Part shown: positions 2,452 through 50,413 of the stretch, piece after piece
How positions within the stretch are numbered: position 1 is the first letter of the stretch
Layout of the letters: the number at the start of each line of letters is the position of its first letter
From: Myxococcota bacterium
GTDB lineage: Bacteria; Myxococcota_A; UBA9160; PR03
Assembly: GCA_041611735.1 (NCBI GenBank)
Contig: JBFIML010000013.1
Coordinates: 12,188-76,187, forward strand
Direction: 5' to 3'
DNA length: 64,000 nucleotides
The notes under the pieces: model-generated
The model's database searches: none
Seen by the model: the letters and a program-made list of their open reading frames with translations, nothing else
What the model was told of the DNA's origin: nothing
Made by a program: the position numbers and the translations under genes

Positions 2452-2479
2452 CGATCGGCAACCCAGCCGGGATCATTGA
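2452..2479 (-). promoter_or_regulatory. sigma28 (FliA)-type promoter motif upstream of pilW2
   Basis: Minus strand TCAAT-N15-GCCGATCG. Confidence 0.6.
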
Positions 2480-2570
2480 GCTTTTCCTGCCGGCGCCGGG
2501 CCGGGCCGGGGGCCCGGCTGCGCAGCGCCTTGCGCGCCGCGCAACCTGCTGCGTAGACCCGGTTCGAGGC

Positions 2571-3572
2571 TCAGTCGCGCAGGGCGGCCGGCGGGGCGGC
2601 GGTCGTCGGCTCGGGGGCCTGGACCACCAGCTCGAAGCGCTGGGCGGTGCCCCCACCGTGGGGATCCTCCACGGCGAGCTCGACCGTGTGGCGACCCGTC
2701 TGGTGCGAGGCGGGCTGCCAGACCAGCACGCCGGTGGCGGGATCCAGGGCCATGCCTCGGGGGCCCTCCAGCAGCCGGAAGCGGAGCGGTCGGTCCCCGT
2801 CCGGGTCCTCGGCCTGCACGGCGTAGCGGAAGCCGCCTCCCGGCCCGATGCCCTGGGGTGCGGAGCGGATCACCGGCGCCGCGTTGGTGAGCTCGAGCGG
2901 TGCGCTGCGTACGGGCCGGCTGTCCTCGGACCCGTCGCTCACCACGACCTCCACGAACACGCTGTCGCCGCGCCGCAGGCCCGCCGTGGAGAAGGTTGCC
3001 TGGCCTCGAGCGGCCTCGCGATCGTTCACGTACCAGACGTAGTCGAAGCGCAGATGGTCGCCGTCGGGATCGTCGGCCTCGACCCCTGCCGAGATCGGGA
3101 TTCCCGCCACGACGTTCAGCCGGGGCCGCAGGACCACCGAGCGCAGCGCGGGCCCCTGGTTGCCGATCCGCACCTCGGCGCTGCGCGGCTCCCCCTTGGC
3201 CTCTCCGTCTCCGGCGACGACCGTGACCCGCACCGCGTCGCCGCGGCGGGAGCGGTTGCCCGGGAACTCCGGCCCGCTGGCTTCCACCGGCCGTCCGTTG
3301 TGCTCCCAGCGGAACTCGAGATGCACCGGGTCGTGGTCCGGATCCTGGGCCCGGACCACCGCGCGCACCGGCTCGGCGGCGCGGGGCCGGGCCGGCCGCA
3401 GCTCCAGCGTCTCGATCACCGGGGCCTGGTTGACCCGGTCCTTGCCGCCCGCGGGCCGCGCGGACATGGGCGGGCCCGACGGCGTTCGAGTCGGCTCCTC
3501 GCCCCCACAGGCGGCGAGCGCCGTCGCCGCCAACATCGCCGCGGCGATCCGGTGGAGCTCCCCTCCTCGCAT
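2571..3572 (-). CDS. Lipoprotein with tandem Ig/cadherin-like repeats
   Basis: Lipobox ALAA|C, three N-x-[AG]-P...DPD[GH]D repeats, C-terminal putative Ig segment (GMALDPATGVLVWQP). Confidence 0.75.
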   Translation of the reverse strand: MRGGELHRIAAAMLAATALAACGGEEPTRTPSGPPMSARPAGGKDRVNQAPVIETLELRPARPRAAEPVRAVVRAQDPDHDPVHLEFRWEHNGRPVEASGPEFPGNRSRRGDAVRVTVVAGDGEAKGEPRSAEVRIGNQGPALRSVVLRPRLNVVAGIPISAGVEADDPDGDHLRFDYVWYVNDREAARGQATFSTAGLRRGDSVFVEVVVSDGSEDSRPVRSAPLELTNAAPVIRSAPQGIGPGGGFRYAVQAEDPDGDRPLRFRLLEGPRGMALDPATGVLVWQPASHQTGRHTVELAVEDPHGGGTAQRFELVVQAPEPTTAAPPAALRD

Positions 3573-3591
3573 GGTCCCTCCCGTGCGCCGC

Positions 3592-3915
3592 CTAGCGCGG
3601 CGCCTCCTCCAGGCGCAGCCGCTCGAGCTCGAGCCGCCCGCCCCGATCCACCGCCTCCCAGACGTACTGGAAATCCCCTCCCCAGGGATCCTGCACCCGC
3701 ACGTCCTGCAGCCCGATCCGCGCGCCGTCCAGGTCGGTGATCACGGTGCGCTCGGTCACGTGGTGCAGGCGCTTGTCGATGGTCACGGTGCGGGCGACCA
3801 CGTCCTTGGCAGTGAGCAGACCCGCGCCTTCCACGAGCTCGCCCGCCGACACCGCCCCCGCCAGACCGAGAGCGGCCGCCAGGGCCAGGACCGCACCTGC
3901 CCGGATGCCTCGCAT
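3592..3915 (-). CDS. Small secreted hypothetical protein
   Basis: Signal peptide ending AVSA; SD (AAGGAGG) upstream; directly downstream of pilY1. Confidence 0.65.
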   Translation of the reverse strand: MRGIRAGAVLALAAALGLAGAVSAGELVEGAGLLTAKDVVARTVTIDKRLHHVTERTVITDLDGARIGLQDVRVQDPWGGDFQYVWEAVDRGGRLELERLRLEEAPR

Positions 3916-3928
3916 GACTCGCCTCCTT

Positions 3929-6900
3929 CTACCGATCTCGCCAGCTCTCGAGCTGGATCAGCCGGGTTCCCAGGTCCGGAGCACACACCTGCTGCATTTC
4001 CCCGTCGCTCGTCACCACGATCACGCGGTTCTCGCAGGGCGGGCACGGCGGCGTGCCGCAGCCACCTCCACCGCCGCCCCCACCGCCCCCGGCGGCGCCG
4101 GAGAGCTGCCCCACCGAGACGCGGGGCGCACTGGGGAGCCCCACACCGATGCTCACACGACGGTCGGCTTCCGGATCCGTGGGACCGCTGCCGGGCTCGA
4201 ACAGCCCGCGACCGCAGAAGAGGTCGAAGCCGTACAGGAAGGCATCGCCCCCGGTCACGCACGGATCGCCCGAGCTGTCGGGAACGTAGGTGGGCGCCAG
4301 CACGAAGCCGGCGAAGATGGTCGCCTTCTGCACCATCTTCTCCCCGTCGCGCAGGCGGATGAAGAATCCGTTCTGCGAGGTCTGGGCCGCGCATCCCAGG
4401 GTGTTGCCGGTGAGATCGTTGAAGGTCGCGGCATCCCCCACCAGCGTGGTCGGAGTCGCGTCCAGCTCCAGGGGATCCGCATCCTTCATGACGTAGAAGC
4501 GGTTGTTCTCCTGGTTGGTCGTGGTCACTCCCGGGAAGCTCAGGTTGGCGCGCTCTCCGGTCCCCAGCGCGAGCCATAGCGTGCCGTGGATCAGCGCTCC
4601 CGTGGGGGGGAAGAACAGGCTCTTGTAGTAGGTCTGGCCACCGGTGGTGTGCTCCGGCGCCCGGAAGACCTTAAGGAAGGGCCAGCCCGGCTGCGCGACA
4701 TCGTGGGTCTCGCCGGGCGAGTGGTCGCCCACGTCGCGGACCACCCACTTCCACAGGTTCCCGCCCAGGTCTCCCACGTAGACCACGTCGACGAAGCCGT
4801 CGGAATTGAGGTCGAAGGCGGAAACCGAGGAGGGAATCGCGTACTTCAGGTCCCGCTGCGGGTCCCCGGCCGGCGCCGCCGGATCGAAGCGCTTGGCGGC
4901 CAGCACCCGTCCCGTGGCCAGATCGATCATGAAGACCGCCCGACCCGCCGTAGCGTTGGCCAGGTAGGACGGCGTATTCGGATCGCCGCTCGGGTCGTAG
5001 CCCCCGGTCACGATGGCCACCCAGCGCTCGAAGGGCTTGCCGGACGGGTCGTAGCTCCCTCCCACGCGCACCTTCACCCGCGTGATCACCGGCTCGGCCC
5101 AGGTCTCCCCGAAATACGGACGCCAGGCGTTGCACAAGGCGTCGCCGGGATTCTCACAGGGGAACTCCCAGAGGTACTTCGGGAAGGTCGAGGCCGTGTC
5201 GGGATCGGTCACGTCCAGCGCGAAGTAGGCGTTGCCGCCCTGGCGCAGCCCTCCCACCAGCACCGTGCGCCACTCGCCGGCGGACTTGTCCCAGTCCGTG
5301 CTCGTGGAGGGCAGCCAGGCATCCGCCGCCTGGGCGGCCCCGTCCACCCCATACCAGTGGGCCGTGGCCGGAAGCGGCAGGTTCTTCACCCGTTTGCGCA
5401 CCGGATACGGCATGAAGCCCATGCGCTCCTTGCCGGCCTCCGCGTGCTCCCGGTTGTAGCGGGCCGGCGAGAGGGTCGTGTCCCACACCTCGCCCACGAA
5501 GCCATGCAGGAAGCCGCCGTTCGAGCCCGCGTACACCATCTTGGTCCGCGTGGCCCAGGTCTGGGCGAAGCTCAGGTACGAGCTGTCGTTGATGGCCGCG
5601 TTGGGAGGCCCGATCACGAGCGGGTTCGAGTGGAAGATGTCCGCCAGCCGGATGCTCCGGTCCACGCAGGGATCCGAGCCGAACTCGCAGCCGCGCCCGT
5701 ACTGCACCACCTCGTCGGCCAGCTCTCCGGCGTTGGACGCCGTGCTGCCCAGGGGCACGTACGGCGGCAGGTCGCCGGCCGTGAGGACGAGGTCCACCTC
5801 GTCGAGGCCCACCCGGTCGAAGACCGGCGGGCGGCTGCCCTGGGCCACCCCCGTCTTCGAGACGTAGAGCTTGCGACTTCCGGCGCTCGGCATCTTGTCC
5901 TGGGCGTCCCAGATGGGCACCAGCAGGTCCAGGGGCTTCAGGTCTCCCCCGTCGCAGGGGGTCGGGTCGCCCGCGAAGACACACAGCCCGTTCTTGTCGC
6001 GCACCTCGCCGTCCGCCTCGATGTCGAAGTTGACCAGGTGCCCCTCCCAGAAGGGCGAGCTGTTCTTGGGCCGGAAGTTGGTGAAGTAGAAGTTGTTCTC
6101 CGCCGTGGTGCGGCTGGCGGGCACCGACACCGCGGTGAAGGACTGCACCTTGTCGATGATGTCCCGGATGGAGTCGATGATGGCCTGGGTCAGCTCCTCG
6201 GCGTTGTTGCTGGTGAAGAAGAGCCCGCCTCCCACCGCCGCGGTCTTGGCCAGCAGGGCGTTTGCCGTCCCCGAGGTGGTGAAGCCGACCGTGTAGATGT
6301 CCAGGTTCTGGAAACCGCTGCGGTTGGGCATGAAGTCGTTTTCGTGCATGAACTTGGCGATGTCGTCGAGGTAGCCAGCCCCCTCCGACGGCCAGGGCGG
6401 ATTGCCCTCCTCGGTCTCGCCGTCCAGGTTGTAGTCGCCGATCAGCTTGTTCTTGAAATCCTTGAAGCCCTTGGCGGTGCTGGTCGGGGATTCCTCGTCG
6501 AAGTCGTCCCGGGTCGGCTCCCCGTCGGTGATGACGATGACGAAGTGCTTCTGGCAGTCGTAGAGGACCGGGGTGTCCGGCACGGTGGGGGGCCCCGAGT
6601 TGCTCTGGGGCCCGTTCAACGTCGTGCGGTACTGGTACTTGGGGAAGCGCGTGCTGGCGTCCTTGCCCTTGGGGCGGTCCCCGTCGTCGCGGTCCATGAA
6701 GTAGGTGTAGACCTGGAAGAGCGTCTCCCCGAGCGGCGTCCAGGTGTCCGGGTCGAGGTTCTGGATGGCGGTGTTCAGGGCCAGGTCCTGGGCCGGCGTG
6801 TAGTCGTCAGCCGGCACCACCACGTAGCCGCCATTGGGGTCGCCACCCTCCCGGAACTGGGCCAAACCGAAGCGCACGTCGCCGGCGGCGTTCACCTGGC

Positions 6901-7459
6901 AGATCACGTCGCGCAGGATGTGACGCATGGCCGAGGCCCGGGAGCGCCGGTAGCGGTGGTAGCTCCCGCCGCCCAGGCAGGCCGAGAAGGTGCCGTTGTT
7001 CATGGCCACGATGGTGGGATACACGGGGTTGGAGGCGGGACTGTACAGCCAGTTCAGGTAGCGGCCGTCCCAGCGGGTGCGATCGCCGTTCACGAAGATC
7101 TCCGGGTCGTGGAACACCTCCCGCGCGGTCGAGACGCAGCCCGCCGGAACCGGCGCCGGGATCGCGTGGGTCATGGGCGGAAAGAGGGTGTCGTTGGGCC
7201 CGCTGAACCCGCTGGAGCCCGGGTCGACGTAGTAGGTCCAGCCGTCGTTCCAGTAGGTGCAGCTCGGCACGAGCGTCGGATCGAAGCTCTCGTGCCAGAC
7301 CACGTGCTCCATGGAGCCGGAGTTGTCGGCCAGGAACACCACGTTCGGCGCCACCACGTTGGAGAAGAGCTCCGTGTCGTCGGCGCGCGGAGTCGCACCG
7401 GGCGCGAGGAGGGACAGGCCCAGGAGGGCGATGACCCCGGGCAGGTGAAGGCGGGTCAT
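3929..7459 (-). CDS. pilY1: PilY1 pilus tip adhesin (vWA + beta-propeller), paralog 1
   Basis: Start MTRLHLPG with SD GGAGG; MIDAS DNSGS and ITDGE; YAGSNGGFLHGF and YFALDVTDP propeller motifs; Ca-binding loop DLNSDGFVD; poly-Gly near the C-terminus. Confidence 0.92.
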   Translation of the reverse strand: MTRLHLPGVIALLGLSLLAPGATPRADDTELFSNVVAPNVVFLADNSGSMEHVVWHESFDPTLVPSCTYWNDGWTYYVDPGSSGFSGPNDTLFPPMTHAIPAPVPAGCVSTAREVFHDPEIFVNGDRTRWDGRYLNWLYSPASNPVYPTIVAMNNGTFSACLGGGSYHRYRRSRASAMRHILRDVICQVNAAGDVRFGLAQFREGGDPNGGYVVVPADDYTPAQDLALNTAIQNLDPDTWTPLGETLFQVYTYFMDRDDGDRPKGKDASTRFPKYQYRTTLNGPQSNSGPPTVPDTPVLYDCQKHFVIVITDGEPTRDDFDEESPTSTAKGFKDFKNKLIGDYNLDGETEEGNPPWPSEGAGYLDDIAKFMHENDFMPNRSGFQNLDIYTVGFTTSGTANALLAKTAAVGGGLFFTSNNAEELTQAIIDSIRDIIDKVQSFTAVSVPASRTTAENNFYFTNFRPKNSSPFWEGHLVNFDIEADGEVRDKNGLCVFAGDPTPCDGGDLKPLDLLVPIWDAQDKMPSAGSRKLYVSKTGVAQGSRPPVFDRVGLDEVDLVLTAGDLPPYVPLGSTASNAGELADEVVQYGRGCEFGSDPCVDRSIRLADIFHSNPLVIGPPNAAINDSSYLSFAQTWATRTKMVYAGSNGGFLHGFVGEVWDTTLSPARYNREHAEAGKERMGFMPYPVRKRVKNLPLPATAHWYGVDGAAQAADAWLPSTSTDWDKSAGEWRTVLVGGLRQGGNAYFALDVTDPDTASTFPKYLWEFPCENPGDALCNAWRPYFGETWAEPVITRVKVRVGGSYDPSGKPFERWVAIVTGGYDPSGDPNTPSYLANATAGRAVFMIDLATGRVLAAKRFDPAAPAGDPQRDLKYAIPSSVSAFDLNSDGFVDVVYVGDLGGNLWKWVVRDVGDHSPGETHDVAQPGWPFLKVFRAPEHTTGGQTYYKSLFFPPTGALIHGTLWLALGTGERANLSFPGVTTTNQENNRFYVMKDADPLELDATPTTLVGDAATFNDLTGNTLGCAAQTSQNGFFIRLRDGEKMVQKATIFAGFVLAPTYVPDSSGDPCVTGGDAFLYGFDLFCGRGLFEPGSGPTDPEADRRVSIGVGLPSAPRVSVGQLSGAAGGGGGGGGGGCGTPPCPPCENRVIVVTSDGEMQQVCAPDLGTRLIQLESWRDR

Positions 7460-7511
7460 GGCAGGAACCTCCGGATTCGGAGTCGGGGAGCCATCGCCGG
7501 GGCCACGACGG

Positions 7512-8045
7512 TCAGCTCCCGGTGTACGGACGACACACGCTGGCCGTGGCCTGGATCGGCCGCGCGAGATTGTCGGGGGTGGTGCCCTGGACGCGGATCT
7601 GCCAGAGCGACTTCCTCCAGACCACCTTGTCCTCGAGGGCCGTGATGAAGTCGCAGTTGGCACCGCTACCCAGGTAGTCGATGGCGTCCGCCACGGCCGG
7701 GTCCCGGCCGAAGCTCGGCTGGCCGTAGGGCCAGGAGCCCGCCTCGCCCACGGCGGTGGCGCCCGCCGGGAAGGGCGGGTTGTAGGCATCGAGGGCCGCT
7801 GCGCCCTCCAGGGCGTGGATGCTGTCCAGGTCGTTGAGGAGCGAGGCCAGGGCGGTGGACACTCCCGCCTCGCCGGCATCCAGGGCCACCCGGGCCCGGG
7901 TCTGGTAGCCCGCCACCTGACGGTCGGCGGTGACCGTCTCCAGGGCGGCGAAGCCGATGAAGGCCATCAGGACGAGCATCATCACGGTCACGAAGAGCGC
8001 GGAGCCCTCGCGGCCCCGGGTGCGTAGCGGCGCGGACGGGTCCAT
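7512..8045 (-). CDS. pilX: PilX-like minor pilin, copy 1
   Basis: ATG overlaps the pilW stop (TGATG); EGSALFVTVMMLVL...AGEAGV; paralog of 906-1370. Confidence 0.85.
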   Translation of the reverse strand: MDPSAPLRTRGREGSALFVTVMMLVLMAFIGFAALETVTADRQVAGYQTRARVALDAGEAGVSTALASLLNDLDSIHALEGAAALDAYNPPFPAGATAVGEAGSWPYGQPSFGRDPAVADAIDYLGSGANCDFITALEDKVVWRKSLWQIRVQGTTPDNLARPIQATASVCRPYTGS

Positions 8046-9031
8046 CAGCTGTTCCCCACGTTGCGGACCCGCACCGTGGCGGTGTGGGTCCGGCGGTGGA
8101 AGCGGTCTGGAACCGCAGCTCCGAGCGCGCGGTTCTCGAAGGCCTGGGGCAGCCCCTGCACGTACTCCTGGCGGGGATCCGGGTCCCGGCTCACCGCCAC
8201 CAGGTTGAAGCGCACCTCGCGCAGGTTCTGGCCGTTGGCCAGGGACGGGTCGTAGGTGGCGGTGTCGACGCCACCGGCGGCGTCCACGCCGTCGCCGTAC
8301 ATCTCGTCGGGGCCCAGATTGCGGTCGTCGTCGTCGTCGAAGAAGTAGGCGACCTGGAGGTCCTCGATGTCCTGCGCCAGGGCCATCCCGTCGCGCTGCA
8401 GCTGCGGGGTGGCGCCGCCCGGGGCATTGACCTGGTAGACGTGGGCCGGGATGGCCACCACGTCGGGGTTGGCGCCCACGGGTCCGATCTGGGTGCCGTT
8501 CCAGTCCACGCTGAGGGTGTTGCCCGCCAGGGCCGTGACCACGCCGCAGGCCACCCGGGCGTCGGGATCGTTGCGGTCCAGCACGATCACGCCCGCGTTG
8601 GCGGCGAAGTCCGGTCCGTCCGCGGCCACGTCGAGCCAGTTGCGGCTCAGGGTGATGGCGGCCCCATGGACCCAGCCCGGCCCCACGCCGCTCACCGGGG
8701 CGCCCAGGTTGCCGGCCGCCTCGTCCACCGGGAGCTGGTCCACGGTGCGCAGCACGTCCGTGTTGCTGACGAACAGCGTGTCGGGCCCGTTGGTGCGGTC
8801 CCAGCCGCACACCGCCGCCGCCTCGGGCACCAGGTACCCGGCCAGGCGCAGGTCCCGCTCGATCAGGTCCGCCACGATGCGGACGGTCTGCTGCGCCTCC
8901 ACGGTCTGGTCCACGATGGCGTAGGTGCGCTGCTGGGTGGTGAAGGTGCCCAGCAACCCGGCCACGACGAGGCCGAGGATCCCGACCACGATCAGGAGCT
9001 CGACGAGGGTGAATCCTGCCGTGCGACGCAT
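8045..9031 (-). CDS. pilW: PilW-like minor pilin, copy 1
   Basis: MRRTAG|FTLVELLIV, IERDLRLAGY; paralog of 1367-2380. Confidence 0.88.
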   Translation of the reverse strand: MRRTAGFTLVELLIVVGILGLVVAGLLGTFTTQQRTYAIVDQTVEAQQTVRIVADLIERDLRLAGYLVPEAAAVCGWDRTNGPDTLFVSNTDVLRTVDQLPVDEAAGNLGAPVSGVGPGWVHGAAITLSRNWLDVAADGPDFAANAGVIVLDRNDPDARVACGVVTALAGNTLSVDWNGTQIGPVGANPDVVAIPAHVYQVNAPGGATPQLQRDGMALAQDIEDLQVAYFFDDDDDRNLGPDEMYGDGVDAAGGVDTATYDPSLANGQNLREVRFNLVAVSRDPDPRQEYVQGLPQAFENRALGAAVPDRFHRRTHTATVRVRNVGNS

Positions 9032-9036
9032 GGCGG

Positions 9037-9525
9037 CTACCAGTTGAAGCGTGCGCTCGAGAGCGTCACGGTGGGCAGGCTCGTCCGTGTCGGCTTCGCG
9101 TTGGGGCGGTTGACCTCCGTCCACGTCACCTCCACGTCCACGTTGAGCAGGTTCGGATCGGCGGTGGCGGCGACGCGCCAGGCCACGTTGTAGGTCTGCC
9201 CGGCCACCGGGGCGCCGGCGGGGACCTGGGGCTGCACGGTGATCTGACCGCCCGGCACCCAGGGCGGCACCTGCCAGCCCGCACCGGCTGCCGCATTGAC
9301 GGTCGCCCAGGGCATGCGCTGGATCTGCTCCATCTGGGCCCGGGCGAGACGGCTCGCGTCGCTCACGTGTTGTCCCATGGAGCCGTCGCGCAGGGCCTGG
9401 ATCTGGAGCGCGGCGAGCGAGAGCAGCCCGAAGGCGAGCACCGCCAGGGCGATCATGATCTCGATCAGGGTGAAGCCGTCGCCGCGAGGCCGACGGCGAA
9501 GCAGGACGGTGGTCAGTTCAGCCAT
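9037..9525 (-). CDS. pilV: PilV-like minor pilin
   Basis: G|FTLIEIMIALAVLAFGLLSLAALQ motif; located between fimU and pilW. Confidence 0.88.
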   Translation of the reverse strand: MAELTTVLLRRRPRGDGFTLIEIMIALAVLAFGLLSLAALQIQALRDGSMGQHVSDASRLARAQMEQIQRMPWATVNAAAGAGWQVPPWVPGGQITVQPQVPAGAPVAGQTYNVAWRVAATADPNLLNVDVEVTWTEVNRPNAKPTRTSLPTVTLSSARFNW

Positions 9526-10196
9526 TGGCCCGAAGCCCCCTGGGTCGCGTCGAACGGGTGGACGCGGGTGGCTCCCAGCGGAGAGAGCACCACCGCGTAG
9601 TCCCGGTTGGTGTTGGTCACGTACACGCCGCCGGCCCCGGAGCCGACCCCGGCCGTGACGAAGGGCGCCACGGAGAAGGCGCGCGGGATGCCGTCCGGCA
9701 GGAAGACGACCCACTGGGCCGGGTTGTTGGCGGGATCCACGAAGGTGAAGCCGCCGAAGCCGGCGCCGCAGCAGAGCCCGAGGGGATCGGGGTCCGTGGC
9801 CGGGGGGCCCGTGACGGCGGCCTGGGTGCTGCCCCAGTTGAGCGTCCCGGTCGGGTCCGCCAGCACCGTCACCCGGTTCTCGCCGGGATCGGCCAGTCCG
9901 TTGCCGTTGGTGTCCTGCACCATCAGGGCGGCGAGCCGGTTGCCGGCGCCGTCCAGCAGCGGATTGCCCGCCGGATCGAGCCAGAAGAACACCGGGTGAT
10001 TGACGCGGGTGCGGATCGCCTCGGCGCGCGCGAGCTGCATCAGATCGGCCATGGAGCGGGTGGCGGCCCGCACGCGCAGGTCGCGCTGCCAGCGCTGGAA
10101 GCGCGGCACGGTCAGGGCCGAGAGCACCCCGATGATCGCCACCGCGACCATGAGCTCGATCATGCTGAAGCCCGCTCGTCCCCGAGCCGCACGCAT
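9513..10196 (-). CDS. fimU: FimU/FimT (GspH-like) minor pilin
   Basis: G|FSMIELMV, ARAEAIR motif; first gene of the minor-pilin operon; SD GGAGGT. Confidence 0.85.
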   Translation of the reverse strand: MRAARGRAGFSMIELMVAVAIIGVLSALTVPRFQRWQRDLRVRAATRSMADLMQLARAEAIRTRVNHPVFFWLDPAGNPLLDGAGNRLAALMVQDTNGNGLADPGENRVTVLADPTGTLNWGSTQAAVTGPPATDPDPLGLCCGAGFGGFTFVDPANNPAQWVVFLPDGIPRAFSVAPFVTAGVGSGAGGVYVTNTNRDYAVVLSPLGATRVHPFDATQGASGQWLN

Positions 10197-10233: not shown

Positions 10234-10249
10234 AGCAAGCCGTGTGCCA
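10234..10249 (-). promoter_or_regulatory. sigma54 promoter of the fimU-pilVWX-pilY1 operon
   Basis: Minus strand TGGCAC-ACGGC-TTGCT, a consensus -24/-12 element 38 nt upstream of fimU. Confidence 0.85.
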
Positions 10250-10285: not shown

Positions 10286-10357
10286 GGATTCGATGGATGC
10301 GCCGACTCCGTCGCTGCGCAGTGCGCTGCGGGGTCCGCAGGCGGCTGCGGGGCTCCC

Positions 10358-11845
10358 CTAGGGCCGCGCCTGGGCGGGCGTCGGGAGGACGGCGGGCAGC
10401 CGCAGGGCGAAGGCGGTGCGCGCCCCGGCCGGGGGCGGCGCCAGCTCGAGCCGGCCTCCGAGCTCCTCGGCCAGGCGCTGGGAGGTGGCCAGGCCCAGGC
10501 CGGTGCCCTCCCCGGGCGCCTTGCTGGTGAAGAAGGGGTCGAAGATGCGCTCGCGATCCTCCTCCGGGATGCCACAGCCGTGGTCGGCCACCAGGCACTC
10601 CACGGCGTCCGGGACCCGCCGGCCCGCCGCCGCCTCCGCGCCCTCTCCATCCCGCACGTCCAGGACCGCCGGGCGCACCCGGATCTCCACCCGCGGGTCG
10701 TCGGCGTCGCGCACCGCATCGGCGGCGTTCAGCGCCAGGTTGAGCAGGATCTGGGACACCGCGCCCGGGTCCCCGCGCACGCTCGGGAGGGCGCCTTCCT
10801 GGCGGACCTGGAAGCGCACCTTCCCGTAGCGGCGCTGGGCTTCGACCAGCGCCACGGTCTCCTCGGCCAGGGCGCGAAGATCCAGGGCCACGGCGGCGGC
10901 GCGGCGCGGAGGCCGGGAGAACTCGAGCAGCTGGCGCAGGATGCGCCGCACGCGCTCCCCCTGCTGGGCGGCCCGGGCCAGGTGCTCACGCGTTTCCGGC
11001 GCGCAGGCCGGATCGCGGCGCGCCAGATCGAGGAAGGCGAGCTGTGCGGCCACCGGGTTGCCCACCTCGTGGGCGACTCCCGCGGCGAGCCGGCCCACGG
11101 CAGCCAGGCGCTCCGCACGGGCCAGGCCGGCCCGGGCATGGCGGAGGCTGCGGTTCGCCTCGCGCAGCTCCGCCACCACCTTCTCGAGCGCCCCGGTGCG
11201 TCGCTCGAGAGCCGCGGTCATCTGGTTGAACGCGGTGGCCACCTCCGCCGCCTCGCGAGGCCCCTCCACCGGCACCCGGTTCGCGAGCTCCCCATCGGCC
11301 ACGGCCCCGGCCGCTTCGGCCAGGCGGCGGAGCGGGAGTACCACGCGACGTCGCAGCAGCGAGACCCCGAAGGCCGTGAAGATCGCCACGTCCACCAGCA
11401 GCACGATGGCCGCCGCGCCGAGGGGCGCCGCGCGCAGGCGCAGGGAGGCAGAGCGCGGCAGCCGCGCCACTGCCACCACGCCGTCGGGCTCCGCGGGAGC
11501 CCCGAAGCGAATCTCCTCCCAGGGGGCACCGGGTTGCAGCAGCGGCATGCGCCGCTCGCGCACGCTCGACGCCAGGGCGCGGGTCCTGGCATCGAGGCTG
11601 TCCGGGTCCGCGCCGGCCGGCTCCACGGAGCCGTCGGCCCGCAGGCGCCACCAGCGCGTCCCGGGGAGCAGCATGGGCTCCGGCTGGGGCGCCTGGAGCG
11701 CCTCGGCCAGCAGCGCCCGCCCCAGGACGTCGCGCAGGCGAGCCTCCCCGTGGCGGAGCAGCACTCCGGCGAGCACCGCCGTGGCCGCCAGCATGACCAG
11801 GGCCAGGCTCAGGATCACCTCGGCCTGCAGGCCGCTGCGCCGCAC
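10358..11845 (-). CDS. Membrane HAMP sensor histidine kinase (no dedicated response regulator adjacent)
   Basis: Two TM helices, HAMP (LPLRRL...AFNQM), H-box AHEVGNP, G-boxes DHGCG and GTGLGL; GTG start chosen just after the pilR stop. Confidence 0.85.
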
Positions 11846-11853: not shown

Positions 11854-14954
<3,101 letters not shown>

Positions 14955-14968
14955 GCCGGCCTCGGGGC

Positions 14969-16180: not shown

Positions 16181-16229
16181 GCCTCACTCCCTCATCGGTT
16201 GGCAGAAGGGCTCGCGCCTCCTCCGCTCC

Positions 16230-17333: not shown

Positions 17334-17346
17334 GCTTGCTCCGCTC

Positions 17347-19047
<1,701 letters not shown>

Positions 19048-19173
19048 CGCACTCCCTCTCCACGCCGCGGCGCGCCGCGGGCGGCCCGAGCCGCCCGGCG
19101 GCCCGAAAGCCGGGGCCGCGCGGTCGGTTGGCGGTCCGCCTGCGGGTAGGCGAAACCTGTCGATCCCGCAGGG

Positions 19174-24938: not shown

Positions 24939-24957
24939 CTCTCTCTCCCTCCTGCGG

Positions 24958-30853: not shown

Positions 30854-31189
30854 ATGCTCGCGTTCCTCACGCTCGCGCTGCTCGTGCTCACCGCCGCCGA
30901 CCACTGGACCACCTATCTGTGCCTGCAGACGCCGGTCCCCGGCTTCGAAGTGACCGAGGCGAATCCCATCGCCGCAGCCCTGTTCGACCACATGGGGCTC
31001 GTGCCGGGACTCCTGCTGGACGGCGCGGTCACCCTGGCCGCGCTCGTCTTCGTGGCCCGCACCCCCCTGCTGCCCCGGATCGTGAAGCAGCTCTTCCTGC
31101 TCACCGTGTCCGCCTGGACGGCGGCAGCGGTGGCCAACAACCTCGACGTGATCGCCTCCCTGGGCCTCTCTCCCCTCGGTCGCTCCTGA
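30854..31189 (+). CDS. Small membrane protein, DUF5658-like
   Basis: DxxTT and EANP motifs, three hydrophobic helices; SD GAGGAGG. Confidence 0.7.
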   Translation: MLAFLTLALLVLTAADHWTTYLCLQTPVPGFEVTEANPIAAALFDHMGLVPGLLLDGAVTLAALVFVARTPLLPRIVKQLFLLTVSAWTAAAVANNLDVIASLGLSPLGRS

Positions 31190-43493: not shown

Positions 43494-43865
43494 TCAGCGC
43501 GTTTCGAGCGCCTCCCGCAGCGTGGCGCGCAGGGCGTGGGCGTCCCAGGGCTTGGCGACCAGGGCGCGGATGCCCAGGGCCCGCATGCGCTCCGGGGCCA
43601 CCTCCTCCGGCCAGCCGCTCACCAGGATGCGGACCGCCTGGGGACAGCGGGCGGCCGCCTGGGCCAGGAGATCGAGGCCGCTCTGTCCCGGCATCTTGTG
43701 GTCGGAGAGGATGGCGTCCACCGTTCCCCCCTCGAGCAAGCGCAGGGCGTCGGTCCCGCTGGTCGCGGTGAGGATGCGGTAGCCCTCGCGGCGCAGCGTC
43801 CGCTCGAGGGCGTCCAGAATGCGCTCCTCGTCGTCTACGAGCAGGATCGTCGCAACCGGGGTCAA
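43494..43865 (-). CDS. Single-domain response regulator
   Basis: ILLVDDE, SDHKMPG, KPW; TTGA overlap with the kinase stop. Confidence 0.9.
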   Translation of the reverse strand: MTPVATILLVDDEERILDALERTLRREGYRILTATSGTDALRLLEGGTVDAILSDHKMPGQSGLDLLAQAAARCPQAVRILVSGWPEEVAPERMRALGIRALVAKPWDAHALRATLREALETR

Positions 43866-45160
43866 GGCCCCGGGTCCGGGGGCGGCCCGCCCTCGCAGGG
43901 AAGCCGGACCTCGAAGGTGCAGCCGCCGCCCGGCCGGCCTTCGGCACGCAGGGTGCCTCCATGCCGGCGCACCACGTCGTAGGCCGCCGAGAGGCCGAGG
44001 CCGGGCCCCTCGCCCGCCGGGCGGGTGGTGAAGAAGGGCTCGAAGACCCGTTCCCCCGGTCCGGGCGGCAGCCCGATCCCGTCGTCGCTCACTGCGACGC
44101 GCACGCCTTCGGGCACGGGCTCCGTGCGCAGGACGATCTCTCCCTGGCCCGCCTCCGTGCGCAGGCGTTCCTGGATGGCCTGGTGGGCATTCACCAGCAG
44201 GTTCATGAACACCTGTTGGAGCTGGGTGGGGCGACAGCGCACCAGGGGCAGCTCCCCGTACTCCTTGCGCAGCACCACCGTGTGCTTGAGGGTCGGCCAC
44301 ACGATGCGGGCCGTGGCGTCCAGGACCCGATTCAGGTCGGCGGGCACCGGCTCACCCTCGTGCGGGTCGGCGAAGACGCGCAGGTCCTGGACGATGTGGC
44401 GGATCCGCTCGGCGCCCTCCAGGGATTCGCGTACCGCCTTGGCGGCGTCGCCCAGCAGGAAGTCCGCATCGACCTGGCGGGCCAGGGCGTCCAGGCGGCC
44501 CCGGGCATCCCGCAGCCTCGCGTCGACGCTGGCGCCGGCCGCCTGGCGGAGCTCCGCCACCGCCTCCCACAGCCGACGCAGGTCCGCCAGGTACTCCTCG
44601 AGCTGGAAGAGGTTGGCGTGGATGAAGCCCATCGGGTTGTTGATCTCGTGGGCAACGCCCGCCGCGAGCCGGCCGATGGACGCCATCTTCTCCGCGTGGA
44701 GCACCTGGCGCTGCAGACGTCGGATCCCGGAGAGGTCCTGGAAGGTGGCGACGGCCCCGAGCGGCGAGCCGTCCGCTTCGAGCAGCGGCCCGGAGCTCAC
44801 TCCGATGGGGACGCGCTGGCCGTCGCGGCGGGTGAGCGTCAGCTCGGCGCCGCACACGCGGGCTCCCTCGCGCAGGCTGCGGGCGAAGGGGAGCTCGTCG
44901 CGTGGCGTGTCCGGAAACCAGTCCCACACCACGCGGCCCGGCAGCCCCTCGACGGCCTCGCCGAGGATGGCCGCGGCCGGCGGGTTGGCCCCGCTCACCT
45001 GACCGCCCGTGTCCACCACGAGGAGCGCGGTGTTCAGGTTGCGCAGGATGGCCTCGGCGTGCCTTCCCAGGGTCCCTGCGTTGCGGGCCGGGGAGGCCCC
45101 CGCGACCCCGGCGGCGGGGCGTGCAGCGACGCGGCGCGCGGGGCTGGACGGCTCGCTCAT
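43862..45160 (-). CDS. Cytoplasmic PAS sensor histidine kinase
   Basis: PAS, AHEINNP, QVFMNLLVNA, DDGIG, FEPFFTT; no TM. Confidence 0.92.
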   Translation of the reverse strand: MSEPSSPARRVAARPAAGVAGASPARNAGTLGRHAEAILRNLNTALLVVDTGGQVSGANPPAAAILGEAVEGLPGRVVWDWFPDTPRDELPFARSLREGARVCGAELTLTRRDGQRVPIGVSSGPLLEADGSPLGAVATFQDLSGIRRLQRQVLHAEKMASIGRLAAGVAHEINNPMGFIHANLFQLEEYLADLRRLWEAVAELRQAAGASVDARLRDARGRLDALARQVDADFLLGDAAKAVRESLEGAERIRHIVQDLRVFADPHEGEPVPADLNRVLDATARIVWPTLKHTVVLRKEYGELPLVRCRPTQLQQVFMNLLVNAHQAIQERLRTEAGQGEIVLRTEPVPEGVRVAVSDDGIGLPPGPGERVFEPFFTTRPAGEGPGLGLSAAYDVVRRHGGTLRAEGRPGGGCTFEVRLPCEGGPPPDPGP

Positions 45161-45202
45161 GGCGTGCTTCCGGCTCGGACGTGGTGGGGGGAACAGCGCA
45201 GG

Positions 45203-46642
45203 CTACCCGATGGACCCGTCGCGACCAACCCCTCCCCGCGGCGCGGGGATGCCGTGGCGCCCGAGCTTGCGGTAGAAGGTGCTGCGTCCGATCCCGAGCC
45301 GGCGCGCGGCCTGCGTGGCGTTCTGGCCGCTCTCGCGCAGGGCCCGCTCCAGGACGCTGCGCTCGTAGGCCTCCAGGGAGAGCGGCAGCGCCGCGGCGGC
45401 TCCGTCCCGACGCGGGGAGGCGCGGCGGGCCAGGGGAAGGGCCGCCGCACGCAGCCGCGGGCCGCGCGCCAGGGCCAGGGCCGACTCGAGCACGTTCTCG
45501 AGCTCTCGCACGTTCCCCGGCCAGTCGTGCTCCACGAGCAGGGCGAGGGCGTCGTCGTCGATCCCCTCCACGGGCGAACCCGCGCGCCGGTGGCGAGCCA
45601 GAAAATGGTGCACGAGCAAGGGGATGTCCTCTCTTCGTTCACGCAGAGTCGGAAGCTCCAGGCGCACCACGTTGAGGCGGTAGAAGAGGTCCATGCGGAA
45701 GGCCCCGTCCTCCACCATGGCGGCCAGGTCGCGGTGAGTGGCCGAGACCACGCGGAGGTCCACGGGGACGGGCTCGGCCGCCCCGACCGGGCGCACCTCC
45801 TTGTGCTGGAGCGCCCGGAGGAGCTTGGCCTGGACCGCCACCGGGATCTCGCCCACCTCGTCCAGGAACAGCGTGCCGCCCTCCGCCATGCGGAACAGCC
45901 CCGGGGCCCCGACGGCGCCGGTGAAGGCACCGCGCTGGTTCCCGAACAGCTCGCTCTCGATGATCGACTCGGGCAGCGCGCCGCAATCGACGGGCACGAA
46001 GGGCCCTCCGGCGCGCCGGCTCGTGGCGTGGATGGCCCGCGCCACCAGCTCCTTGCCCGTACCGCTCTCGCCGAGGACGAGCACCTGGCTCTCGTTGTGA
46101 CGCAGGCTCCCGATCATCCGCACCAGGGCGCGCATGCGGGGAGAGGTCCCGACCAGCTCCGGCAGCGTGGCACGCCCGCGGAGTTCCTCCTCGAGCTCCC
46201 GGTTGCGACTCACCAGCCGCCGGCGTTCCAGGGCCTTGCGCACCGTGGTACGCACGCGGTGCACGTCCTCGAAGGGCTTGGCCAGATAGTCGAAGGCGCC
46301 GCGCCGCATGCAGCCGACTGCGCTCTCGACGCTCGCATGCCCGGTCATCACGATCACCTCGAGCTCGGAGTGCTCGCGCTTCAGGCGATCGAGCCACTCG
46401 AGGCCGCTGGCGGAGCCCAGGAACAGGTCGAGGAGCACCACGTCGGGAGGCGCTTCCGCCAGCGCCTGCTCCAGCTCCCGGGGACCCGCGGCCTGCAGGA
46501 CCCGGTGGCCATCGGCCCCCAGGATCCGGGAGAGGGCACGCAGCAGGAGCGGCTCGTCGTCCACCACGAGGACGAGGCCCGGGGCCTCCTCGGCCCGCAC
46601 GCCCCGGCCGTGCGCCGACGGCAGCGCGCACTCGGTCGTCAT
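45203..46642 (-). CDS. sigma54-dependent response regulator (NtrC family)
   Basis: REC, GESGTGKE, GAFTGA, HTH; start uncertain (ATG 46642 or GTG 46600). Confidence 0.92.
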   Translation of the reverse strand: MTTECALPSAHGRGVRAEEAPGLVLVVDDEPLLLRALSRILGADGHRVLQAAGPRELEQALAEAPPDVVLLDLFLGSASGLEWLDRLKREHSELEVIVMTGHASVESAVGCMRRGAFDYLAKPFEDVHRVRTTVRKALERRRLVSRNRELEEELRGRATLPELVGTSPRMRALVRMIGSLRHNESQVLVLGESGTGKELVARAIHATSRRAGGPFVPVDCGALPESIIESELFGNQRGAFTGAVGAPGLFRMAEGGTLFLDEVGEIPVAVQAKLLRALQHKEVRPVGAAEPVPVDLRVVSATHRDLAAMVEDGAFRMDLFYRLNVVRLELPTLRERREDIPLLVHHFLARHRRAGSPVEGIDDDALALLVEHDWPGNVRELENVLESALALARGPRLRAAALPLARRASPRRDGAAAALPLSLEAYERSVLERALRESGQNATQAARRLGIGRSTFYRKLGRHGIPAPRGGVGRDGSIG

Positions 46643-46649
46643 GCCCGGC

Positions 46650-46677
46650 CTATCGGTCCCGCTTTCGGGACGCTTGA
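46650..46677 (-). promoter_or_regulatory. sigma28-type promoter of the activator-kinase-RR operon
   Basis: Minus strand TCAAG-N15-ACCGATAG. Confidence 0.65.
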
Positions 46678-46752: not shown

Positions 46753-48147
<1,395 letters not shown>

Positions 48148-48202
48148 GCTTCGGCCCGCCAGGCGCCCGGGCGACGATTTCGTAACCCCCGCCGGCGGCG
48201 GT

Positions 48203-48218
48203 CGTCGGATTCCTGACG
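48203..48218. promoter_or_regulatory. Candidate activator binding site (FleQ-box-like palindrome)
   Basis: CGTC-GGATTCCT-GACG (GTC-N8-GAC), about 190 nt upstream of the fliA sigma54 promoter. Confidence 0.4.
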
Positions 48219-48406
48219 CTTTCGCCGGCGGCTGATTGGGCCCGCCGCCCCGGGCGGCACTCGACCTGCGCAAGAGCCTGCACTCCGGCCACGCCGCCCG
48301 GAAGCGGGAAAGCGGAACCGGCACCCGGGGTTGCGCCGCTGGGGAGGCGCCGGCCGCCGTCCGCCTGCGCGCTCCCGGACCGCGCGGCCCGTTTCGAACC
48401 CGAACT

Positions 48407-48422
48407 TGGCACGCGCCGTGCT
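48407..48422 (+). promoter_or_regulatory. sigma54 promoter of fliA
   Basis: TGGCAC-GCGCC-GTGCT (GG-N10-GC), about 92 nt upstream of the ATG. Confidence 0.7.
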
Positions 48423-48513
48423 TTGCTGCGCAGCCTGCGCGCAACCCGGTGCGCTCGGGAGCGGCACGAAGCTGCGGATGCGTCGCTCGTCAACCGTCCA
48501 GGAGGAGGACTGC

Positions 48514-49278
48514 ATGGAGCAGATGCTCCGCGATGCCAAGGAGAGATACTCGGAGATTCCCGCGTCGCTCAAGGAGCAGATCGTGCTCGAGCACGCCCCC
48601 CTGATCCGCTACATCGTGAACCGCATTGCCGTCCGTCTGCCTTCCCACATCGATCTCGACGACCTGCACAACACCGGCGTGATCGGCCTGATGGACGCGA
48701 TCGAGAAGTACGATCCGGAGAAGAACTGCAAGTTCAAGACCTACGCCGAGTTCCGCATCAAGGGAGCGATCCTCGACCAGCTGCGCTCGCTGGACTGGGT
48801 GCCGCGCAGCGTGCGCCAGAAGGGTCGCCGGCTGGAGCGGGCCTACGGCGAGGTGGAGCAGCGCCTCGGGCGCTCGGCCACGGAGGAGGAGGTGGCCGAC
48901 TCCCTGGGGCTGCAGATCGAGAAGTTCCACGAGCTGCTCAACCAGGTCCGCGGCGTCTCCCTGGTGAACCTGGAGGAGCTGCGGGGCACCGGGCCCGACG
49001 GAGAGCGCACCGGCGGCTACGCGGACATCGTGGAGGACGTGCACTCCGAGAACCCGTTCTCCGCCCTCAAGCTCTCCGAGACCAAGCGCCTGATCGGCGA
49101 CACGATCGCGAGCCTGCCCGAGAAGGAGCGGCTGGTGATCTCCTTCTACTACCACGAGGACCTGAACATGAAGGAGATCGGGTCGATCCTGGGCATCACG
49201 GAGTCGCGCGTGTGCCAGATCCACACGAAGGCGGTGCTGCGGCTGCGTGCCAAGCTGAAGGCCCTGCTGGAGCGGTAG
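48514..49278 (+). CDS. fliA: RNA polymerase sigma factor, FliA/WhiG (sigma28) family
   Basis: FKTYAEFRIKGAILDQLRSLDWVPRSVR, KEIGSILGITESRVCQIH; SD GGAGGAGG. Confidence 0.95.
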   Translation: MEQMLRDAKERYSEIPASLKEQIVLEHAPLIRYIVNRIAVRLPSHIDLDDLHNTGVIGLMDAIEKYDPEKNCKFKTYAEFRIKGAILDQLRSLDWVPRSVRQKGRRLERAYGEVEQRLGRSATEEEVADSLGLQIEKFHELLNQVRGVSLVNLEELRGTGPDGERTGGYADIVEDVHSENPFSALKLSETKRLIGDTIASLPEKERLVISFYYHEDLNMKEIGSILGITESRVCQIHTKAVLRLRAKLKALLER

Positions 49279-49288
49279 CAAGCGCAGC

Positions 49289-49400: not shown

Positions 49401-49471
49401 CCAGGCCGGGAGCCCCGCGCCCCGCGCGGCCTGCCTGGCAGGCTGCCGAAAAACCCCGGCGTTTCGCCGGA

Positions 49472-50203
49472 TCAGTCCGTCTTCTCGCAGCGCACCAGGA
49501 CGACCGTGATGTTGTCCTCGCCGCCGCGCTCGTTGGCGAGGGCGATCAGTCCGTCCGCGGCCGTCTGGAGATCCCCCTCCCCGGCCAGCGCCGCGGCGAT
49601 CTCCTCGTCGCGCACGTGGTTGGTGAGGCCGTCGGAGCAGAGCACGAAGACGTCGTCGGGAGCCAGGGTGAGCTCCGCCAGGTCCGGCTCCGCGTTGGGC
49701 CGCACGCCGAGGGCCCGGGTGAGCACGTGGCGGTGCGGGTGCTCCCGGGCTGCATCCGGGCTGATCTCGCGGCGGCGCACCAGCTCCGCCACGATGGAGT
49801 GATCGTCCGTGAGCTGCCGCAGCCGCCCCCCACGCTGCAGGTAGGCCCGGCTGTCCCCCACGTGGGCCAGCGCCGCCCGCCCCTCGTCCAGCAGCAGGGC
49901 CACGAGCGTGGTTCCCATGCCGGCGAGCTCCGCGTGGTCGTGGGCGGTCTGGAAGATCTGGCGGTTGGCGGCGGCCACGGCGTAGCGGAGCTTCTCGGCG
50001 AGGCTCGCGGAGGCACCCGCCAGGGTGCTCACGGCCCGCAGGGCCTCCTCCGCGGCCAGCCGGCTGGCCAGCTGGCCGGCCGTGTGGCCTCCCATGCCGT
50101 CGGCCACCAGGAACAGGCCGAACTCGGGGGCCAGGGCGTAGCGGTCCTCGTTGGTGGAGCGCCGCCGCCCGACGTCTGATCCGGCCGTCGCCCGCAGGAT
50201 CAA
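49472..50203 (-). CDS. PP2C-family Ser/Thr phosphatase (Stp1/Pph1-like)
   Basis: DVGRRRSTNED, VADGMGG, MGTT, HVGDSR, CSDGL, GGEDN; TTG start behind GAGAGGGGG. Confidence 0.95.
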   Translation of the reverse strand: MILRATAGSDVGRRRSTNEDRYALAPEFGLFLVADGMGGHTAGQLASRLAAEEALRAVSTLAGASASLAEKLRYAVAAANRQIFQTAHDHAELAGMGTTLVALLLDEGRAALAHVGDSRAYLQRGGRLRQLTDDHSIVAELVRRREISPDAAREHPHRHVLTRALGVRPNAEPDLAELTLAPDDVFVLCSDGLTNHVRDEEIAAALAGEGDLQTAADGLIALANERGGEDNITVVLVRCEKTD

Positions 50204-50275
50204 CGAAAAGCCCCCTCTCGCGCTCCGCAGGCCGGGCACGCAAGCCCCCGCCTCCCGGCCCGGACCGCCACGGTT

Positions 50276-50303
50276 TCATCGGAGTCTCCAGCCCGCCACT
50301 TGA
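50276..50303 (-). promoter_or_regulatory. sigma28-type promoter of the PP2C gene
   Basis: Minus strand TCAAG-N15-TCCGATGA. Confidence 0.6.
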
Positions 50304-50385
50304 CGGACGGGCCTCGAGGCGCTGCCGTTGCGGGGAGCCCACCCCGGGGGTCGCTCCACCGCGGCGCCGGGCGGCGAAAAAGCAT

Positions 50386-50413
50386 TCAATTCCCGGGGCC
50401 GCGCCGTCGATAA
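50386..50413 (+). promoter_or_regulatory. sigma28-type promoter of romR
   Basis: TCAAT-N15-GTCGATAA, 60 nt upstream of the ATG. Confidence 0.6.

Follow-up and report, generated by a model that had tools for sequence, protein, structure and literature searches.

Which genes would a sigma factor of the FliA/WhiG family serve in a region where none of its neighbours is a flagellar gene? The question is raised by a 64 kb stretch of DNA from a Myxococcota bacterium (contig JBFIML010000013.1, positions 12,188 to 76,187), here called the window, which is 72% GC and in which a fliA/whiG-family gene (referred to here as fliA) occurs together with type IV pilus genes and a gene for a RomR-like response regulator (romR for short). 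An initial annotation had proposed that six sequence motifs in the window make up a σ28 (FliA) regulon for type IV pili and cell polarity rather than for flagella. The core of this proposal, namely σ28 sites 5' of pilB, both minor-pilin operons, an activator-kinase-response regulator operon, a PP2C phosphatase gene, and romR, has stood up well, but the network is not a simple FliA regulon, because fliA itself and both of the minor-pilin operons have σ54-type promoters. It is quite probable that the six motifs are genuine σ28 (FliA/WhiG) promoters, that the product of the gene at 48478–49278 is the sigma factor that recognizes them, and that they belong to a σ54/σ28 circuit.

All six of the motifs are present at the coordinates and on the strands that had been given for them, five on the minus strand and one, that of romR, on the plus strand, and each points at a gene start 7–127 nt away (Table 1). 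Their resemblance to the FliA consensus, which had been noted in the initial annotation, agrees with the consensus described in the relevant portions of two publications, where a −35 element T(A/C)AA is followed by 16 nt and a −10 element GCCGATAA with an invariant CGA (PMC12871210, PMC8325347). The degenerate pattern by which the motifs had been described matches the window eight times, compared to a mean of 0.70 and a maximum of three in 100 dinucleotide shuffles, none of which reaches eight; the two extra matches, at 13485 and 59284, are intragenic. As that pattern was fitted post hoc, the window was retested with the published consensus TAAA-N16-GCCGATAA, scored out of 12. At a threshold of at least 9/12 there are 14 matches where 4.4 are expected, with none of 200 shuffles reaching 14, and at 10/12 or better there are three where 0.23 are expected. 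The site 5' of pilB is the sole 12/12 match in the window, with none expected from the 200 shuffles.

A position weight matrix (PWM) trained on 117 romR and PP2C sites from other genomes, with the window left out and with no sites from the activator operon included, gives a similar picture. There are eight window hits of at least 15 bits, against a mean of 0.23 and a maximum of two in 100 Markov simulations, and all six of the proposed sites are among the eight. Indeed, the pilB site alone, at 21.3 bits, exceeds the highest score (20.7 bits) seen anywhere in the 100 simulations. The six motifs might nevertheless be chance matches, given that the original pattern was fitted to the sites and that the intergenic DNA is richer in A and T than the 72% GC average would suggest. 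Composition was controlled for by taking the 200 nt upstream zones of 29 operon-first genes and shuffling each zone separately. The zones are bimodal, with six at 15.5–24.7 bits, scores that 0 of 1000 shuffles of the zone concerned reach in each case, and the other 23 at no more than 5.9 bits. The six high-scoring zones are exactly those singled out in the initial annotation, and the zones 5' of the housekeeping operons, where it had seen no such motif, are all on the low side of this divide. The motif is thus enriched over random expectation in the window shuffles, with the PWM trained outside the window, and in the shuffles of the individual zones, and these together with the conservation across species rule out chance, the probability of which is considered negligible.

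Conservation was assessed within 10 kb on either side of fliA in the best 80 of 573 confirmed relatives, found by a genome-contig search with the FliA protein of the window (loci L001 to L080; 1.26 Mb). All 80 are uncultured metagenome-assembled genomes (MAGs), mostly labelled Myxococcota or Deltaproteobacteria, in which FliA is 79–89% identical to that of the window. Complete MAG chromosomes that carry the locus include OZ252299.1, OZ245015.1, OZ245817.1, and CP070734.1. Both N-termini of the divergent romR and PP2C genes can be placed in 63 loci. The sequence TCAAT-N15-G[A/T]CGATA is found 5' of romR in 59 of these 63 regions at 10/12 or better, compared to 0.6% of shuffles, and the remaining four have the same boxes at a spacing of 14 nt. 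For PP2C, TCAAG-N15-xCCGAT[A/G] is found in 58 of the 63 regions at 9/12 or better, compared to 6.9% of shuffles. The boxes have a pairwise identity of 93% (romR) and 84% (PP2C) and the spacers only 36% and 33%, and the information per column forms two blocks with a flat spacer between them in both promoters. Directly 5' of the romR −35 box there is an A-tract, GAAAAAGCAT (50377–50381, plus strand), which is kept in the relatives although it played no part in the scoring and which looks like an UP element.

The operon of the sigma-54 activator gene, here EBP1 (for enhancer-binding protein), has a site of at least 14 bits in 39 of the 44 orthologues for which upstream DNA is available, and in about nine more loci a comparable site diverges from the neighbouring activator gene, EBP2, and stands before a different gene. 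Across the 1.26 Mb of loci, 160 of the 209 hits of at least 14 bits are upstream of romR, PP2C, or EBP1. The motif described in the initial annotation is therefore conserved in relatives at three of its six locations, with drifting spacers, while for pilB, fimU, and pilW2 the evidence is that of the window statistics.

Within the EBP1 operon the genes are spaced by 42 nt and by −4 nt. In 28 of the 39 conserved EBP1 sites the −10 box ends 1–10 nt before the extrapolated start of EBP1, and in the window the sequence reads ACCGATAG-GCCGGGC-ATG, an arrangement which suggests that the EBP1 mRNA is probably leaderless. The spacer of this promoter contains an inverted repeat, GTCCCG-N4-CGGGAC (46655–46670, minus strand), which is present in 22 of the 39 EBP1 sites versus 5 of 59 romR promoters and 8 of 58 PP2C promoters, and which is a candidate operator. 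This repeat and another palindrome, CTGCGCAG, are candidate binding sites for EBP1, EBP2, or PilR.

That fliA is present in the window, as had been stated, is clear from the FliA/WhiG family model (Table 1) and from the FliA subfamily model NF005413, for which the score of 258 bits is above the cutoff of 201; Pfam identifies sigma-70 regions 2, 3, and 4. The score against the WhiG equivalog model NF004935 is 292.8 bits, below the cutoff of 343, and the protein is therefore not an orthodox WhiG. The closest solved structures are those of WhiG (6pfv, 236 bits) and then E. coli FliA (6pmi, 199 bits), and in the alignment from the PDB the recognition helix in region 4.2 differs hardly at all from the WhiG helix. 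Myxococcota encode many sigma factors, and the link between this one and the six sites is made from sequence, which leaves some room for the reader of the motifs to be the product of a gene elsewhere, be it a different sigma factor or some DNA-binding protein, with the adjacency of fliA being incidental. The bipartite form with fixed spacing, the strand orientation, and the promoter-like distances of the sites all match a consensus that is specific to FliA/WhiG, however, and three of the conserved sites flank fliA itself in a synteny block that almost all of the 80 loci retain. Such a reader is considered very improbable.

The gene fliA has a σ54-type promoter of its own, TGGCACGCGCCGTGCT. Sites of this type were scored out of 11 against TGGCAC-N5-TTGCA, with the −24 GG and the −12 GC required at fixed spacing. 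Each of the 70 loci in which EBP2 and fliA are both present has a best GG/GC site of 8–9/11, and 68 of these 70 sites have the form TGGCA[CT]-N5-xTGC[TA] and lie 18–113 nt before the start codon. At a score of at least 8, sites are found on the reverse strand in 4 of 70 cases and in 105 of 700 shuffles. EBP2 encodes one of three sigma-54 activators in the window, the others being PilR and EBP1, and its adjacency to fliA is kept across the loci of the relatives. From this adjacency, EBP2 is the probable activator of the fliA promoter, and the position of a conserved σ54-type promoter before fliA and right after EBP2 is what suggests a cascade from σ54 to σ28. The gene for σ54 itself, rpoN, is not in the 64 kb window. 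Just past the EBP2 stop codon (48170–48225, plus strand) there are two conserved words, TTCGTAAC and TGACGCTT, present in 28–32 of the 70 loci. Being some 190–230 nt 5' of the σ54 core promoter of fliA, they are candidate enhancer sites.

The minor-pilin operons also have σ54-type core promoters, that of fimU, TGGCACACGGCTTGCT, being the best in the window and that of pilW2 being CGGCACGGGTCTTGCT. At both operons the σ54 site begins 8 nt after the σ28-type −10 box, and further 5' there are CTGCG/CGCAG palindromes, at approximately 10300–10350 for fimU and 2520–2560 for pilW2, that are candidate activator sites. The arrangement suggests that the minor-pilin operons have composite σ28/σ54 promoters. 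An upstream activating sequence common to these promoters and to that of fliA was sought and not found, the fliA region having other conserved words. The likelier start of fimU is the ATG at 10195, which is preceded by GGAGG at a distance of 7 nt and yields a prepilin leader that ends in G|FSMIEL, rather than the ATG at 10163 chosen by the gene caller; the σ28-type site would then be about 62 nt upstream.

Several observations weigh against the view that all six motifs are σ28 promoters within such a circuit. The scores of fimU (16.1 bits) and pilW2 (15.5 bits) are no higher than those of two intragenic hits, at 13482–13509 in pilS and at 10716–10743 in a HAMP histidine kinase gene (both 15.6 bits, minus strand), so scores of about 15.6 bits do occur here in sequence that is not promoter sequence. 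The intragenic hits as a whole score 12.6–15.6 bits. Among them, the one in pilS is 243 nt before pilR and one at 17525–17552 (minus strand) is 192 nt before pilT, and these two could be internal promoters; the 10716 hit is suspected of being a coding coincidence. A false positive of the PWM is seen at 59284–59311 (plus strand, 13.3 bits), in the gene for an EF-G paralogue. This hit was considered as a promoter for the downstream operon that contains an MglA homologue and was rejected for this window: it is in the conserved 3' end of the coding region, its 'spacer' is conserved as well, and synonymous changes break the boxes in several of the loci, so it is kept as coding sequence. The −10 box of EBP1 is so close to the ATG that the mRNA would have to be leaderless or translation would have to begin at another codon. 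No member of the FlgM family was matched among the 56 genes of the window or among the extra open reading frames (ORFs) scanned in the loci of the relatives, nor is there, in any frame of the window, a motif of the RsiG type, E(X)3S(X)2R(X)3Q(X)3D; an anti-sigma factor may be encoded elsewhere in the genome. Nor is there a σ28-type site 5' of fliA, where the best score in the zone is −2.3 bits, and autoregulation of fliA by σ28 is accordingly unsupported. Among the loci, a strong σ28-type site near fliA is present only in L056 and L067, where it is at the 3' end of EBP2. Lastly, the fimU and pilW2 sites are just upstream of strong σ54 promoters and could be elements of another type.

This last point can be developed into an alternative in which only the romR, PP2C, EBP1, and pilB sites are σ28 promoters and those of fimU and pilW2 are instead part of the σ54 architecture, for example a site for a bending protein or an activator between the upstream activating sequence and the core. 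The strength of the two cores (10/11 and 9/11) at the same distance behind the −10 box, the palindromes upstream of both operons, the equality of the two scores with those of the two intragenic hits, and the −10 boxes GCCGAAAA and GCCGATCG, which are the most degenerate of the six, would all be accounted for in this way. Both sites nevertheless have TCAA and GCCGA separated by precisely 15 nt, with little similarity between the two spacers, and 0 of 1000 shuffles of either zone reach the scores seen. The offset to the σ54 box is the same in two operons, which suggests a composite promoter that has been maintained, and neither region, on inspection, is a good fit to the IHF consensus. This explanation of the fimU and pilW2 sites is regarded as rather doubtful, and σ28 promoters remain the favoured reading at all six locations.

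The claim that the regulon serves functions other than flagella has to be weighed separately. The organism may be flagellated, with the six sites forming a side branch of a conventional FliA regulon for flagella, most of which is outside the window. After all, 64 kb of the genome has been seen, from a contig of 76 kb, and the WhiG-like sigma factors of Actinoplanes drive both flagellar and type IV pilus genes, according to the relevant portion of PMC8325347. A σ54 promoter before fliA is also typical of flagellar hierarchies, such as that of Xanthomonas, where the portion of PMC8657755 concerned describes control of fliA by RpoN2 and FleQ. Among the 56 called genes of the window, scanned with Pfam, there is no flagellar, chemotaxis, or flgM gene, as had been noted in the initial annotation, and the same is true within 10 kb of fliA in the 80 relatives, where synteny covers most of the DNA and 66 of the 111 cluster representatives of extra ORFs were scanned, 45 short or antisense ones having been dropped. 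Cultured Myxococcota are not known to be flagellated. A flagellar side branch is therefore judged unlikely, and it would in any case leave the promoters real and touch only the wording 'rather than flagella'.

In the circuit that is proposed, a σ54 promoter would drive fliA, with EBP2 as its probable activator, and the σ28 holoenzyme would in turn transcribe the gene for the RomR-like regulator, the divergent PP2C gene, and EBP1 with its kinase and response regulator, the last from a transcript that is probably leaderless. In this window the holoenzyme would also transcribe the motor operon pilB-pilT-pilC-pilS-pilR and both of the minor-pilin operons, which would take input from both sigma factors through the σ54 core behind the σ28 boxes. 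The expected output would be the coordination of pilus assembly with front-rear polarity. The part of the circuit made up of fliA, romR, PP2C, and EBP1 would extend over a large clade of uncultured Myxococcota. Indeed, since dozens of species-level genomes share the romR, PP2C, and EBP1 promoters and the σ54 promoter of fliA, the prediction applies to the clade as a whole and not to one genome.

A broader proposal can be put forward tentatively, as something possible but short of likely. A flagellar-style hierarchy, in which an enhancer-binding protein and σ54 act on σ28 and σ28 on a second σ54 activator, may have been kept in a clade of Myxococcota without flagella and rewired to time the assembly of type IV pili, including the motor and the priming complexes, together with RomR/MglA polarity. 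The minor-pilin promoters would integrate both sigma factors, and the mid-tier regulator would be made from a leaderless mRNA with an operator in the promoter spacer. Even in the model Myxococcus xanthus, little is known of how motile bacteria adjust the levels of polarity proteins such as RomR and bring them into step with the making of pili, and the locus offers a testable wiring in which one alternative sigma factor would link the pilus motor, the priming minor pilins, a polarity regulator, a Ser/Thr phosphatase, and a two-component/σ54 module.

The RomR-like protein has a receiver domain (Pfam Response_reg) over residues 6–116, followed by a linker with a proline content of 25% at residues 126–250 and 17% at residues 251–400, and a C-terminus (residues 401–499) that is 18% glutamate. 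Across the loci the receiver domain is 76% identical, and in 62 loci there is 60% identity over the C-terminal 69 residues, in every case within the same gene, while the linker is unconserved, with weak hits in only 29–31 loci at 29–32% identity. In the relevant portion of PMC3441718, RomR is described as having a receiver domain, an unstructured proline-rich linker, and a conserved helical, glutamate-rich RomR-C, and as co-occurring with MglA, MglB, and type IV pili. The protein of the window appears to share this architecture, and it is for this reason called RomR-like, with a C-terminus that may correspond to RomR-C. The 120 best homologues have generic database names only, such as 'response regulator'.

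Like the RomR-MglA-MglB module of M. xanthus, as far as it is described in that source, the locus combines this architecture with type IV pilus genes and an MglA homologue, which is encoded 10 kb downstream. Unlike that module, there is no match to the MglB (roadblock/LC7) family among the genes of the window, and the MglA homologue is extended at its C-terminus and is preceded by a gene for an unknown 361-aa protein (unk361). In relatives where the operon of unk361, the MglA homologue, and a GAF-GGDEF protein directly follows coaX, there are intergenic σ28-type sites of 13–18 bits, for example in L035 and L043 (18.1 bits) and in L064 (17.3 bits). In some lineages the regulon may thus also take in the MglA paralogue, as judged from the relatives and not from this window.

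The use of a FliA/WhiG sigma factor for pili has a precedent. For the WhiG of Rubrobacter radiotolerans, a consensus search and the mapping of transcription start sites identified three promoters in the pil cluster and five before enzymes of cyclic di-GMP metabolism, as described in the relevant portion of PMC8325347, and a 2026 survey, in the portion concerned, predicts links between WhiG and type IV pili in further actinobacterial families (PMC12871210). As far as these accounts go, the two systems share a FliA/WhiG sigma factor without an adjacent flagellar cluster, the consensus T(A/C)AA-N16-GCCGA(TAA), several promoters inside the pil cluster, and signalling genes among the targets, with cyclic di-GMP enzymes and regulators included. 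They differ in that the present system is from Myxococcota, has no RsiG-type motif in the window, has a fliA that is predicted to be σ54-dependent, and includes a RomR-like regulator, a PP2C phosphatase, and a σ54 activator operon among its targets. The Rubrobacter promoters have mapped transcription start sites, while those of the window are known from their sequence. The co-option of σ28 for pili is thus already known in Actinobacteria, and what is new here is a second phylum, the RomR-like gene, the phosphatase, and the σ54 tier. In the literature searched there is no report of a σ28 regulon in Myxococcota or of σ28 control of romR. The regulatory co-option from flagella to type IV pili would thereby be extended to a second phylum, with an upstream σ54 tier like that of flagellar hierarchies.

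Flagellar hierarchies that pass from σ54 to σ28 are present in Vibrio and Pseudomonas. Like these and the Xanthomonas system, so far as the latter is described in its source, the circuit has an enhancer-binding protein and σ54 above fliA, a FliA that would drive late genes, and a further σ54 activator embedded in it. Unlike them, its visible outputs in the window are type IV pilus, polarity, and signalling genes, and no FlgM checkpoint was found in the window. The pilA gene of M. xanthus has a σ54- and PilR-dependent promoter, and the σ54 cores before pilin operons, the palindromes upstream of them, and the adjacency of pilS and pilR are similar to what is seen for such promoters. The promoters of the window differ from these in that they serve minor-pilin operons and have σ28-type boxes in front at a fixed offset of 8 nt. 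PilRX and RpoN2 of Xanthomonas are likewise listed with pilA in Table 1 of PMC8657755.

Table 1. Promoter-type sites, genes, and operons of the window discussed in the text, with distances given to the start of the downstream gene.
Feature	Coordinates	Strand	Evidence or remarks
pilW2 σ28-type site, TCAAT-N15-GCCGATCG	2452–2479	−	15.5 bits; 71–72 nt before start at 2380
fimU σ28-type site, TCAAG-N15-GCCGAAAA	10258–10285	−	16.1 bits; 94–95 nt before ATG 10163
pilB σ28-type site, TAAAG-N15-GCCGATAA	19174–19201	−	21.3 bits; 126–127 nt upstream
EBP1 operon σ28-type site, TCAAG-N15-ACCGATAG	46650–46677	−	19.3 bits; 7–8 nt before ATG
PP2C σ28-type site, TCAAG-N15-TCCGATGA	50276–50303	−	20.5 bits; 72–73 nt upstream
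romR-like σ28-type site, TCAAT-N15-GTCGATAA	50386–50413	+	24.7 bits, top hit of the window; 60–61 nt upstream
σ54-type core promoter before pilW2, CGGCACGGGTCTTGCT	2428–2443	−	9/11
σ54-type core promoter before fimU, TGGCACACGGCTTGCT	10234–10249	−	10/11, best of the window
σ54-type promoter of fliA, TGGCACGCGCCGTGCT	48407–48422	+	9/11, GG/GC fixed; 55 nt before fliA start
Second minor-pilin pair pilW2-pilX2	906–2380	−	Pfam N_methyl, PilW, PilX_N
Minor-pilin/PilY1 operon fimU (GspH), pilV, pilW, pilX, pilY1	3929–10195	−	Pfam GspH, N_methyl, PilW, PilX_N, T4P_PilY1
HAMP histidine kinase gene	10358–11845	−	In pilus cluster
pilB-pilT-pilC-pilS-pilR	11854–19047	−	TIGR02538, TIGR01420; T2SSF, 6TM_PilS, Sigma54_activat domains
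pilB	17347–19047	−	PilB TIGR02538, 829 bits (cutoff 675.65)
EBP1 operon	43494–46642	−	Pfam; EBP1 45203–46642, PAS histidine kinase 43862–45160, single-domain response regulator 43494–43865
EBP2, NtrC-type sigma-54 activator (REC-AAA+-HTH_8)	46768–48147	+	Pfam Sigma54_activat, 248.9 bits; directly upstream of fliA
fliA/whiG-family sigma factor gene (266 aa)	48478–49278	+	TIGR02479 FliA_WhiG, 274.6 bits (cutoff 189.6)
Stp1/IreP-type PP2C Ser/Thr phosphatase	49472–50203	−	NF033484, 263.7 bits (cutoff 230); syntenic in most loci
RomR-like response regulator, 499 aa (REC, Pro-rich linker, acidic helical C-terminus)	50474–51973	+	REC 79.5 bits
unk361/MglA-like/GAF-GGDEF operon	59534–63863	+	Unknown 361-aa protein precedes MglA homologue
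MglA homologue, 319 aa	60619–61578	+	Similar to M. xanthus MglA 5ymx (E 5.5e-36); extended by about 125 residues at the C-terminus

The genes of the window were called with a codon-usage model trained on ORFs with high GC at the third codon position, and were annotated with Pfam and NCBIfam. The first 19 kb of the window carries a type IVa pilus cluster on the minus strand, identified as such by PilB, PilT (TIGR01420, 489.7 bits against a cutoff of 319.1), PilC, the minor pilins, and PilY1. The product of pilR is a sigma-54 activator. The major pilin and PilMNOPQ are not encoded in the 64 kb window.

The TAA that ends the pilB promoter also serves as stop codon of the LPG_synthase_TM gene upstream. 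The −10 box of this promoter is immediately followed by an inverted repeat, CCTGCGGG-N18-CCCGCAGG (19133–19172, minus strand), which could be a hairpin in the 5' untranslated region, the terminator of the LPG_synthase_TM gene, or a binding site.

The pilus cluster is followed by housekeeping genes, including ribF, lptF/G, an SPFH/NfeD group, coaBC, pgm, coaD, dacB, anmK, and genes for glycosyltransferases. The regulatory block begins at 41.7 kb with a PilZ protein and an unknown 420-aa protein (unk420), continues with the minus-strand EBP1-PAS kinase-response regulator operon, which diverges from EBP2, and then has the sigma factor gene. It ends with the PP2C gene, which is convergent with fliA, and with the gene for the 499-aa response regulator, which diverges from PP2C. 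On its 3' side are valS, nadC, birA, coaX, the EF-G paralogue, and the genes for unk361, the MglA homologue, and the GAF-GGDEF protein. For unk361 and unk420, the database clusters returned only 'hypothetical protein'.

Synteny is kept in the relatives on both sides of the sigma factor gene. The left half has GT, MT, (PilZ), unk420, the response regulator, the histidine kinase, and EBP1 on the minus strand, followed by EBP2 and fliA on the plus strand, while the right half has PP2C on the minus strand and then, on the plus strand, the RomR-like gene, (valS), nadC, birA, coaX, (EF-G), unk361, the MglA-like gene, and the GGDEF gene. Several MAGs with this Myxococcota-type synteny, among them L003, L004, L009, L029, L035, and L037, have records labelled Spirochaetales, Opitutales, or Gammaproteobacteria; these labels are probably wrong.

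Two further features are found among the genes between the pilus cluster and the regulatory block. At 22279–26289 on the minus strand, three SPFH/Band-7 genes in a row are followed by a gene for an NfeD membrane protease. A σ54-like site, GGGCACGGATCTTGCG (9/11), is present at 30782–30797 on the plus strand, 57 nt before a small DUF5658 gene (30854–31189) that is beside an HTH_3 gene.

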